Source of the DNA: Eledone cirrhosa
Taxonomy: Eukaryota
NCBI GenBank assembly: GCA_964016885.1
Contig: OZ024742.1
Location: forward strand, 62,310,001-62,374,000
Direction: 5' to 3'
DNA length: 64,000 bases
Below the pieces are notes generated by a model that had not been told where the DNA came from, did not search any database, and was given only the letters and a program-made list of their open reading frames with translations. The position numbers and the translations under genes are program-made. Shown piece after piece: positions 51,348 to 62,257 of the stretch (positions are counted from its first letter, which is position 1; every line of letters starts with the position of its first letter).

Positions 51348-53163
51348 GTATGTCTGTTTAAATGGCTTATTGATACATTTTACCAATACTCATGTGCATA
51401 CGAAATGGATGTATTACACACAGGCACACACACACACATATATACACATATTCACAAATACACGAACGGATAATTATATAGGTGTGTAGATATGTGCACA
51501 GCACCAAGAGCAAGTATTTTCTTCTGTAATCTTGGGTTGACTAATACCAAAATCTTTTGAGTGGAATTTATCAGACAGAACCTCTCCCTCTCTTTTTATA
51601 TATGTGACTGTGCTTATGTCTTGTTAATTAGGTGTTTGATAAAAGTAATGGATAAATATAATAAGTACCAGATCAGGAGAAAGAAACAATGCAGTGAAAA
51701 AGATCAACTAAATTAAGTTAGTGGCCTAGTAATAGCCACAGTGGAGTAAACAAATAAAAGATATATATATATATATAGATATATCATCATCATCGTTTAA
51801 CATCTATCTACCATGGTAGCATGGGTTAGATGAGTTTGTCCCATTTGAGGCAAGTTGGGTCGGGTGATCATGTCTTGCTCATAAAGGACTGTTTCTGGCT
51901 GGTTTTCTATGGCTAGATGCCCTTTCTAATGCCAACCACATATTTATATATATATGTGTATATGTGTATATATATATAACGTTTTAGCTTGTTTGCTTTG
52001 CACACTTATGATTTTATAACACTCTGATTAATGAATGTAAGCCTATGCTTATGTACACACACAGACACAACACACACACACACATACACACACACACACA
52101 CACACACACACACATATATATATATATATATATATATATATATACATGGTAGACTGGCCAGGTTGCCAGGTTGCCCAATGGCAAGTGGGGCCCAGGAGCC
52201 CACTAATATTTTAGCGGCCAATGCTTTGCTTTAAAAAAATATTTTTCAAAAAATGTCTTAGAGAAAGAATAACAATTTTCTCCTTTACCATCCTCCGGGG
52301 AAATGTCCCTCTCCATTCTGTGTCCGGAGCTGTGGGGAGGCCAGCACATGGGATCCCATTTACTCACCATACAGATCAATGGGGAGGGAGAGAGAGATGG
52401 AGGTGAGGTGATGATAGTGGGAGTTCGGCTCTCCCACGTTTGGACCATATCCTTGTGGTTGTGTTTATTAAGCAGTTAATGTGTCTCTTTATGTATAGAC
52501 TAAATAGTGTACATTCTGTATATATCCAATGAAATTCCTGTATATAATATAACCATTTACATCTTTCTAAAACCTTAACCCTTTTCACACATTGAGCTAT
52601 GTATTTGGTCAAACAATTCCCAAGAGAATTAATAGAAACCAAATTATATGATAATGCTTATATATATATATATGTGTGTGTGTGTGTGTGTGTGTGTGTG
52701 TGTGTGTGTGTGTGTGTGTGTGTGTGTGTGTGTGTGTGTGTGTGTGTGTGTGTGTGTGTGTATACACACACAAGTGAAGAAACCTAGTGAGAGCATGGAT
52801 GTAAACATATACATACACACAGACACACTGGTATACATCCATGCAACACAAAGTCTATACATATTCCCAAACGCTCCCCAACCAAACTGGCAGATTTGAT
52901 TTGGAACCTCAACATGCCAGATCAAATAGTCAGTTAGAAGACGTGTGGCCTAATCCCCTACTGGGGGAGACCACTGCAGGTTATGCCTGGCCGAGTCGGC
53001 CAAGATCATCAAATTAAAATCGGCCGTAAATTCGAGATAGGACATCATAATAAACTGTAGATATACCAGGTAAAACACTTTCGTCGCATTGGCATTCGGG
53101 TACGTGCCGTGCCATGGACAGACCCATAACTTAAACACGACATAAGGATAATTACCACTATTT

Positions 53164-53315
53164 TCTCACACCATTTCTCATTTCAGTACCACTGTTACCT
53201 TTATCAAATTTTAATTTGTAGCTCGTTTTAAGTTTTGATCTCACACCATTTCTCATTTGATTACCACTGTCATCTTTGTCAAATTTTAATTTGTAACCTG
53301 TTTTAAGTTTTGATC
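53164..53315 (+). repeat. Two-copy 75-bp tandem repeat
   Basis: TCTCACACCATTTCTCATTT..TTTTAAGTTTTGA occurs twice. Confidence 0.85.
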
Positions 53316-59800: not shown

Positions 59801-62257
59801 ATCGCTGCTTTCACCCTTAACGGGATCTTCTGAAACTAACAAAGTCAATCTGTAAACGCAGAAGTGGATATTTCAAAAAACGTTGCAACCGGAGGAATAC
59901 AGGAAGACGATACTTTGGTTCGTGGAAACGTTCGCTGGCAAAGAACGGAAAAAAAACGAATATAATTCGTCATTAATAGGAGCGGTGAAAAACAATTACG
60001 CGCAAAGACAGAACGACGTTTATGGTATAAAAGAGGTCGTAGACTAATGTTCGCTTAGGTGGTTCATAGAGACGTTCTCTGGCTATGAACGAAAAAAACG
60101 AAGATAATACGTCATATGTGGAGCGTGGAGAACAATAGCACGCAAAGACAAAACCTCGTAAATGGTATAGCAGAAATCGTAGACTAAAATTCTAACTAGG
60201 AGACCGAATGAATCTCCGCTACAGAGTTAAGAATAAAGTAAATAAATACAATACAGAAGTAATAGAAATAAATAAATACATACACGCAGACAAATACGTA
60301 CATACACAAGCATACGCAAAACACTTACTATAGGTATACAAAACCACGCACATATAAATATGTGTGTGTGTCTATGCGTGTATACAAATAAATAAATAAT
60401 TATATAAACGTATATAAATAAATAAATACGTATATAACAAGCGCACACACATACCTACATGTAAATACACGAATGTTCGGAGACGTAAGTCAACCAAAAC
60501 ATGAAGTACACATATACACACACCTACATACGTACGAACCTGCATACTCACACAGACGCAAAACTCCCGTATACACATAGCCAAACTATATGTACCAGAA
60601 TATATAAAATTATACGCCATAACATAAACAATCAAATATACGTACGAGAAGGTATGCGTACCTTCACAAAACATACGGGTAAAATATACTTACCTATGCA
60701 AATAAGTAATGGTATAAACAAAACATATACTTAGCTCCCACATCAAGACGTAAAATATCCACGTATAAATCGTACTATCCGTTAGGATATAAAGTGCGGC
60801 TGTAATACAGGAAAGTTTTGTGCAATTTATGTTTACAAGCCGAAATTGCCTCAGATTTTTTGTTTAAGATGTGGTCTGTGGCTTTGAGTATTTTTCCAGT
60901 GCCTCGGCGGTGCAGAGGTCACATGGTCTTTTATTTCCGTTATACGATCTAGCCCTAGCTAGGATCTCCCAGTGTAACTTATATTGGGTGTGGTTGTCTT
61001 TTAGACTCCAGATATAAGCTGAAAGTGACGTCATATTCCTTCTTAGAGGGTAACGAAAAGAATGGGTATGCATGTAAAGACGCTGCTTGAATCTATTGGC
61101 GGTTAACCCTATGTAGGCCCTACGGGACGTGGGTGTTACAACCTTACATTTGTAGACAATGTTACTAGAGAGGCATTTCCCGGATAGAGGGCAATCAACC
61201 CGATTCCTACAATTACAGTTAGTACTAACTACATGTGTATACATACATACATACTTAGTGTATACATACATACATACATATACATGCATGTGATTGGTGC
61301 CTGACGGCGAGTAGGCTGATTGCTATAAAGCGCAGCCGAATACTGCCTAAAGTGTTGTTACTCAACCATACGAGAGTATATAAAATATATAGGTTTACCT
61401 ATACATAAACTAGACGGAGCCATATATATATATATATATATATATATATATATATATATATATATATATATATATATATATATATATATATTCACGGTGT
61501 GGCTCAATGATGAATTAATTAATTAAATAATCAACAATCAGAGCAGTATATAAGAAAGTAAGTCCATAGAATCATTTGATAAAATATATTCAGTATTTCT
61601 CCTCCCAATCAGCTTTCTGACTTGACCACTGGCCATGTGACAATTCTTAGCCATTTTGAATTCGTTTCTGGCGGGGATCATTTAAGAAATATCTTTGTCC
61701 AATTGAGTTTGTTTCCTGATGATTTCGAAACTCGTGAATTTATCCATGATCGGATATTTCCAAAAAGCGAATGAAACCTGATGGGGTAGAAACATAATTT
61801 TGGTATGTTTTTGTACATTTTTTCTTCTAACTTTGATTTTGTACCTAATTGTGTATGGTTGGCTATATGTCTAATCAATTTCTACGGGCTATTAGAAATA
61901 CTGGGTACATTTTCTGTGGCTGTTGATCGCGGATAAAATAGCTATCATTTATTTATCTAGTGTTTCTTCATAGGTACATTTTAAACTTATAGCCTCCTTT
62001 AATTGATTTTGTGTGGTTAATTATGCTGATTGGGAGGATAAATACTGTATATATTTGATCAAATAATTCTATTGACTTACTTTCTTATATATCAATATAT
62101 ATATATAGTAATAATAATAAATTTGAAAACTAATAATAAATAATATATTTCAGAAGATCCCGTTAAGGGTGAAAGCGGCGATTCTTTTCTTAAACTTTAA
62201 TCTGTTATTTATATATATATATATATATATATATACGTTTGTTCGTGTGTATTTCAG

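Follow-up and report, generated by a model that had tools for sequence, protein, structure and literature searches.

Hammerhead motifs in an intron of an Eledone cirrhosa PAN-domain gene as probable leftovers of Penelope-like elements

Penelope-like elements (PLEs) are retroelements whose insertions show partial tandems, a 5'-truncated copy in inverted orientation, a tail on one side and hammerhead ribozymes in the pseudo-long terminal repeats (pLTRs) (Craig et al. 2021, PMC8557442), most frequently in a head-to-head arrangement (Arkhipova et al. 2013, PMC3846280). In metazoan PLEs dual hammerheads are found on opposite strands 100-700 bp apart, and a minimal PLE hammerhead from Schistosoma is inactive as a monomer and only slightly active when dimeric (Cervera and de la Pena 2014, PMC4209133). 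As described for the PLE hammerhead of Anolis, there was no cleavage without the element protein, the ribozyme was dispensable for insertion in vitro and no RNA-seq ends mapped to the cut site (Frangieh et al. 2024, PMC11167929). Tandem hammerhead units constitute the non-long terminal repeat (non-LTR) retrozymes (Cervera and de la Pena 2020, PMC7229834), which have been proposed to be derivatives of PLEs (bioRxiv 10.64898/2026.07.22.740005). A literature search on octopus hammerhead ribozymes gave no description of such elements, judged by titles and abstract openings. Here we analyzed a stretch of 64,000 nt of the Eledone cirrhosa genome (~3.0 Gb; contig OZ024742.1, locus G000:C3:62310001-62374000), called the window below and used for all coordinates, and in particular intron 3 of a PAN-domain gene, copy B of a tandem cluster. 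Our analysis makes it probable that the hammerhead motifs of this intron are passive leftovers of PLEs, deposited by several independent insertions of high-copy families, with no predicted regulation of the host gene.

Hammerhead motifs in intron 3 and the insertions that carry them

Type I hammerheads were searched for with a descriptor combining the CUGANGA core, GAAA, NUH and three helices with the open end in helix I, which had been tuned on the intron motifs themselves. Intron 3 contained four sense and three antisense canonical motifs, and 300 out of 300 dinucleotide shuffles gave no match; over 1.53 Mb, reversed and complemented controls gave 2 matches vs 81 insertion events. Judged by sequence the hammerhead motifs in intron 3 are real, and cut sites are predicted for the four sense ones. 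When read by eye, the common core occurs with unrelated helix sequences in many families, and a relative of the 56651 motif (C11myo 70862) has another 10-bp helix II with the same helices I and III. The initial annotation had listed sense motifs at 55125, 56651, 58415 and 61710 and a variant at 62146. All four sense motifs were recovered by the descriptor at these coordinates, with predicted cuts after 55197, 56703, 58451 and 61788, but the picture of a sense-strand series does not stand, since the antisense motifs at 54685, 56506, 58073 and 59787 had been omitted, as had two presumably dead sense motifs at 56939 and 59454. The variant is a degenerate stub rather than a ribozyme, with a helix I of just 3 bp and a mismatched helix III; 49 of 51 nt (96%) align to the 59787 copy, of which it is the inverted end. 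Together with the 56939 and 59454 motifs, this stub (core at 62151) falls outside type I hammerheads.

The insertions around the first two sense motifs were predicted to fold into near-perfect hairpins, with a minimum free energy (MFE) of -732 kcal/mol for 54513-55372 and -189 kcal/mol for 56474-56742. To force the hammerhead fold in this context would cost 113 kcal/mol for 55125 and 83 kcal/mol for 56651, as compared to 6.3 and 1.2 kcal/mol for the motifs alone, and the corresponding costs in context are 7.6 kcal/mol for 58415 and 6.7 kcal/mol for 61710. The folding model thus predicts that 55125 and 56651 are masked by the upstream arm and that 58415 and 61710 are left unmasked in loops, which supports the earlier proposal that the complementary arm is transcribed first and sequesters 55125 and 56651 in a duplex. 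Since a head-to-head insertion places the antisense arm first on either strand, this arm order needs no selection and the masking is a by-product. The palindromes were also matched by hairpin-shaped microRNA models of Rfam, which scored under the gathering threshold and were dismissed as unspecific.

The motifs belong to repeat families. A 22-mer and a 20-mer taken from the two masked motifs have 531 and 117 exact copies genome-wide, with 0 control matches. Among the first 100 matches listed per family there were 10 and 4 close opposite-strand pairs (<2 kb; one of the four is the window itself), and all 14 of the 14 listed pairs run minus-then-plus, i.e. head to head. The same arrangement was seen in 28/28 fold-backs (p=7e-9) of the gene-span and random-DNA samples described below, and in the window at 54513, 56474 and 59763/62142. 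In both masked families, moreover, the end of one arm is fixed and the other arm runs on into a tail (query 428 vs 456+, and 134 vs 152). The paralogs offered no clean empty site for either masked insertion; the insertion ends lie inside (TA)n tracts.

The 55125 family also occurs as tandem units of 553-556 nt that lack an open reading frame (ORF) and carry one type I hammerhead each. At least five same-strand pairs spaced by 553-556 nt, or about twice that, were present among the first 100 matches listed, and a tandem array also occurs at another locus (L043). For the 61710 family, contig depth ranged from thousands to tens of thousands vs 9-19 on the neighbouring exon, in three read runs that are DNA-like, as contigs cross exon 4 plus the flanking introns. 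A>G differences in these contigs were considered as editing and rejected as variation within the repeat family.

Two 5'-truncated remnants in the intron carry the coding trace of PLEs. The GIY-YIG fragment in 58577-59490 is 54% identical to a reverse transcriptase (RT)-GIY-YIG ORF at L038, a homologue whose RVT_1 match (21.7 bits) is below cut-off. The C-terminus at 60802-61217 is 39% identical to a 784-aa PLE-type ORF at L046, which itself has no significant Pfam match. A CAGAAGA motif lies 950-1070 nt downstream of the PLE-type C-terminus at three loci elsewhere in the genome as well as in two copies within the window. This predicted motif, with A at position 4 of the core and intact helices, is among the commonest in our random-DNA sample. 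A natural U4A variant of the core was not found in passages of PMC3088659, and it may already be known.

Taken together, the intron elements are likely PLE ends plus non-autonomous, retrozyme-like derivatives. We infer that insertion of each element puts a 5'-truncated copy of its hammerhead-bearing end into a (TA)n tract, this copy often being joined head to head with another one in inverted orientation, and that the elements have low activity in vivo and are neutral. The masked motifs are predicted never to fold, and the unmasked ones are likely tolerated because metazoan Penelope-type hammerheads are slow, or depend on dimers or on protein, so that splicing would usually win. In a zebrafish intron, mRNA levels fell by less than 3-fold with three earlier ribozymes, and only an engineered one reached 20-fold (PMC11856399).

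Masking, cleavage and tolerance in gene spans

Myosin and kinesin genes, located by Pfam exon matches, provided 1,132,500 bases between collinear exons in 42 stretches. A random sample of 400,000 bases from 20 evenly chosen places served for comparison; as it contains both intronic and intergenic DNA, the comparison loses sharpness. The gene spans held 18 fold-backs, 15 free sense motifs and 20 free antisense motifs (binomial p=0.50; one long-loop antisense match, C5myo, was dropped as chance-like and would give 15 vs 21 if kept), and the random DNA held 10 fold-backs, 9 free sense and 9 free antisense motifs. The insertion density was 4.7 per 100 kb in gene spans vs 7.0 in random DNA (raw densities, significance not computed), and the difference is not strand-specific; a lower density in gene spans would fit the general under-representation of retrozymes in introns that is reported for Xenopus. 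Extrapolated to the genome, these densities correspond to ~140,000-210,000 hammerhead-bearing insertions.

The counts bear directly on the earlier suggestion that fold-back makes these insertions tolerable in introns. If unmasked sense hammerheads harmed the pre-mRNA, fold-back copies would preferentially be kept there, and the overwhelming thermodynamics of the masking, the slight deficit of free sense motifs, the capacity of intronic ribozymes to lower mRNA (PMC11856399; CPEB3, PMC10919898) and the core changes in two further sense motifs (at 56950 and 59479) could all be read in this way. The fold-back share, however, is the same in gene spans (18/53, 34%) and random DNA (10/28, 36%; Fisher p=1.0), and a depletion of free sense motifs by 3-fold or more is rejected (P=0.016; for 5-fold P=0.0002). 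A free sense motif is present in 10 of the 18 gene stretches that have any motif, and motifs with a hairpin helix III are divided into 8 sense vs 9 antisense. In the host gene itself, copy B has kept 58415 and 61710 unmasked and copy A has kept unmasked sense motifs at 460, 5184 and 8450, and what copy A has lost is the masked 56651 motif (deletion of B 56648-57351). The deletion joint was not among the joints listed from independent DNA contigs, 15 further joints being unlisted, and this proves nothing. As the fold-back share is equal and unmasked sense motifs are common, masking does not appear to be needed for tolerance; that it makes hammerhead insertions tolerable in introns is mostly not supported, with a mild, about 2-fold depletion possible. 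We therefore consider selective retention of fold-back copies unlikely.

The intron 3 of copy A (window 1-10778, upstream to -7977) is a rearranged duplicate of that of B. It has tandem duplications within it, with short microhomologies at their joints, and at 1758-2100 a further hammerhead fold-back of 343 nt. It also contains two identical dimer-type sense motifs, 460-502 and 5184-5226, which are 4.7 kb apart and might in principle form an active dimer with each other; copy B has just one such motif.

An unmasked motif could also act as a kinetic attenuator, by cleaving a part of the nascent transcripts ahead of exon 4 splicing and thereby lowering the output of the gene. The CPEB3 ribozyme, which is hepatitis delta virus-like, single-copy and conserved, is the model for such a role. 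It is intronic and competes with splicing (PMC10919898). The best candidate for real cleavage in our intron is 61710, which has an intact core, a GUA site and a 4-bp helix III, a predicted hammerhead fold at most 0.9 kcal/mol from the MFE when alone, and a place in both gene copies A and B. Given the intact core and the near-optimal fold, modest cleavage in competition with splicing is possible at this motif. It is nevertheless a very high-copy repeat, leaves only ~470 nt to the 3' splice site and has a U-U mismatch at position 10.1-11.1. Moreover, copies A and B are ~1% apart, and most of intron 3 of B is repeated in A with internal duplications, so motifs shared by the two reflect inheritance, not conservation. 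Paralogs C and Z have other insertions, or none, at the motif positions of B, and 61710 is missing in both. No motif of intron 3 holds a conserved single-copy position of the CPEB3 type: they are multi-copy repeats, C and Z differ and copy A has lost 56651. There is a slim chance that 61710, a young transposon hammerhead, is an accidental CPEB3-like dimmer on a duplicated gene and that some of the hammerhead-bearing insertions in the genome tune transcripts, the fold-back copies staying inactive unless unwound by a helicase; that such an attenuator lowers the output of this gene is about as improbable.

Finally, the initial annotation had proposed editing or unwinding as a switch, in which ADAR or a helicase opens the duplex and the masked ribozymes fire to release the 55198-56703 fragment or a circle. 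Long near-perfect duplexes are textbook ADAR substrates. We simulated editing with 6-15 replicates per level and an approximated inosine. Editing of all adenosines in the upstream arm left a masking of 50 and 29 kcal/mol for 55125 and 56651 if inosine was unpaired, and 92 and 66 kcal/mol if it was treated as G. With both arms edited at 25%, 65-99 kcal/mol of masking was left and 24% of molecules retained all five core adenosines, which editing of the sense arm would strike. Hammerheads are commonly inactivated by an A>G change (PMC11856399), and a literature search on hammerheads and an ADAR switch gave no natural editing-activated intronic hammerhead among the matches listed. Hammerhead-bounded tandem units do form circles in other metazoans (PMC7229834), but circles of the 55125 family would more naturally arise from its 553-nt tandem arrays at other loci, and the 55198-56703 fragment requires two different masked motifs to fire, of which copy A has lost one. 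In the simulation the masking survives a complete edit of the upstream arm, and the core would be struck as well; a switch by editing or unwinding is highly improbable.

We thus favor passive leftovers of PLEs, and several points weigh against this interpretation. Rfam gave no hammerhead match at gathering score, and none was among 84 matches at E<=10 in 54400-62300. An autonomous RT/GIY-YIG partner for the 55125, 56651, 58415 and 61710 families was not found in the sampled loci, which for the two masked families amounted to ~1.9 Mb of fetched sequence. The 55125, 56651 and 61710 motifs have a hairpin helix III of 3-4 bp, and the argument from weak dimers is not directly applicable to them. 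The gene spans were inferred from Pfam exon matches, are unannotated, include small exons and were taken irrespective of expression, and the counts (n=35) are compatible with a 2-fold depletion of free sense motifs (P=0.15; ratio confidence interval 0.36-1.54). Intron 3 has ~8 motif-bearing insertions in 11 kb, ~10 times the sampled average. Retrozymes are reported to be under-represented in Xenopus introns (10.64898/2026.07.22.740005), and a fast engineered hammerhead in an intron cuts mRNA 13-20-fold in zebrafish (PMC11856399).

Host gene cluster and other features of the window

In a sequence model of splicing, the four coding exons of copy B (Table 1) join into a stop-free frame of 267 aa. 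The PAN domain of exon 1 matches PF00024 (28 bits vs a cut-off of 21.4), and exons 3 and 4 have no Pfam match. For the host protein no relatives of 192-2000 aa were found at E<=1e-5, and Atlas gave unnamed PAN clusters. A fifth exon was not located, and read-through past exon 4 meets a stop at 62435. The gene lies in a tandem cluster of copies A, B and C and further paralogs inside 264 kb, with exons of copy A at -18679 to 9198 and of copy C at 99528-123283. At ~62.25-62.75 Mb of G000:C3 there are at least ten related exon-4 matches of this PAN-domain gene family, for which no named relatives were found.

Table 1. Coordinates in the window of host gene copy B, its intron 3 and the elements in it (splicing, hammerhead folds, cut sites and masking are predictions)
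Feature	Position	Strand	Remarks
Copy B exon 1, coding	47376..47703	+	hydrophobic N-terminus, PAN/apple domain
Copy B coding exon 2	50121..50278	+	
Copy B coding exon 3	51190..51347	+	
Copy B intron 3, 10.9 kb	51348..62257	+	GT..AG; mosaic of repeats inserted at (TA)n/(CA)n tracts
Copy B coding exon 4	62258..62415	+	
Fold-back of the 553-nt tandem-unit (retrozyme-like) family	54513..55457	.	between (TA)n tracts
Arms of this fold-back	54513-~54949; ~54957-55372		inverted arm; direct arm, then one-sided tail to 55457
Antisense hammerhead	54685..54778	-	left arm of the 54513 fold-back
Sense hammerhead	55125..55204	+	masked by left arm; cut after 55197
Fold-back stub of a second family	56474..56786	.	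270-nt palindrome 56474-56742 plus one-sided tail
Antisense hammerhead	56506..56565	-	in the 56474 fold-back
Sense hammerhead	56651..56710	+	masked; cut after 56703; deleted in copy A
Sense motif, core G8 -> A	56939..56989	+	predicted dead; family contigs have G at 56950
Antisense hammerhead	58073..58118	-	unmasked; palindromic helix III, dimer type
Older fold-back, hammerhead in loop	58265..58575	.	arms 58265-58374 and 58465-58575
Sense hammerhead	58415..58457	+	unmasked; cut after 58451; minimal palindromic helix III (dimer type), helix II mismatch
5'-truncated Penelope-like remnant	58577..59490	+	GIY-YIG fragment PF01541, 26.6 bits (cut-off 22.6)
Degenerate 3' hammerhead, core 59454	change at 59479	+	GGAA instead of GAAA; in the 58577-59490 remnant
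5'-truncated Penelope-like remnant	59763..61320	-	GIY-YIG-type C-terminus 60802-61217; ends in pLTR with the 59787 motif
CAGAAGA variant hammerhead	59787..59837	-	intact helices; in pLTR end of the 59763-61320 remnant
Fold-back of very high-copy family, hammerhead in loop	61547..62091	.	short arms 61547-61613 and 62025-62091
Sense hammerhead	61710..61794	+	unmasked; cut after 61788; ~470 nt before 3' splice site
Inverted 5'-truncated stub of the 59763-61320 element	62142..62205	+	CAGAAGA core at 62151

Three further elements were noted. At 40459-45535 of the window there is a 5-kb head-to-head insertion, [59719->60786][63677<-59763]+tail, with a second copy at 92587-97570 (L015-L016). It lies upstream of gene copies B and C but not of A. 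In the long arm, sequence of intron 4 is followed by exon 4 in antisense and then by the CAGAAGA end of the pLTR and the family tail, which resembles 5' transduction of host sequence by a PLE. The divergence is 4.8% between the two arms and 1.5% between the long arm and B, which indicates that the arms come from different templates, and template switching at the DNA level may be the origin of the insertion. In a myosin intron on contig C3 (L082, oriented 7490-9529), six hammerhead units form a 310-nt tandem array that is accompanied by an inverted copy; such an array is typical of retrozymes, and it is antisense to its host gene. An open frame of 873 aa on the minus strand at 16893-19514 shows reverse-transcriptase-like motifs and a C-terminal endonuclease-like region, and we take it to be an apparent non-LTR retrotransposon.

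Comparison with known systems

As it stands the significance of the locus is small, and it is likely ordinary transposon debris. It adds several new hammerhead-bearing Penelope/retrozyme families in one more animal genome, by a kind of insertion that is already known, and it offers an initial, small-scale test of the need for masking of intronic hammerheads, in which no such need was apparent. Of specialist interest may be the hammerhead load of 5-7 insertions per 100 kb and the abundant natural CAGAAGA core tied to a PLE end. If an unmasked motif were active in vivo, transposon ribozymes would constitute a large unrecognised layer of pre-mRNA turnover.

The locus agrees with published insertions of endonuclease-positive PLEs (PMC8557442, PMC3846280) in 5' truncation, partial tandems, the inverted head-to-head copy, the one-sided tail, the pLTR hammerhead, the GIY-YIG C-terminus and the microsatellite sites. 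It differs in that the intron has no intact element, the tails are ~45-85 nt as compared to 30-40 nt published, target-site duplications are unreadable inside (TA)n and four intron families lack a partner ORF. With metazoan PLE hammerheads (PMC4209133, PMC11167929) the motifs share type I topology, many divergent families per genome that are mostly single truncated copies, opposite-strand dual motifs 100-700 bp apart and, in 58415 and 58073, a palindromic helix III. In contrast, 55125, 56651 and 61710 have a hairpin helix III and a long helix II, no intron motif has G10.1-C11.1, and one abundant family has the core CAGAAGA, not CUGANGA.

As in metazoan retrozymes (PMC7229834, 10.64898/2026.07.22.740005), there are dispersed non-coding tandem units with one type I hammerhead each; the unit here is 553 nt vs the ~300 nt described, and the intron copy is a two-arm fold-back, not a tandem. 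The likeness to the CPEB3 ribozyme (PMC10919898) is that of a sense-strand intronic self-cleaving motif, predicted in our case, that could compete with splicing. The activity of the CPEB3 ribozyme has been measured, whereas the motifs of intron 3 are young multi-copy repeats that are not present in all paralogs.

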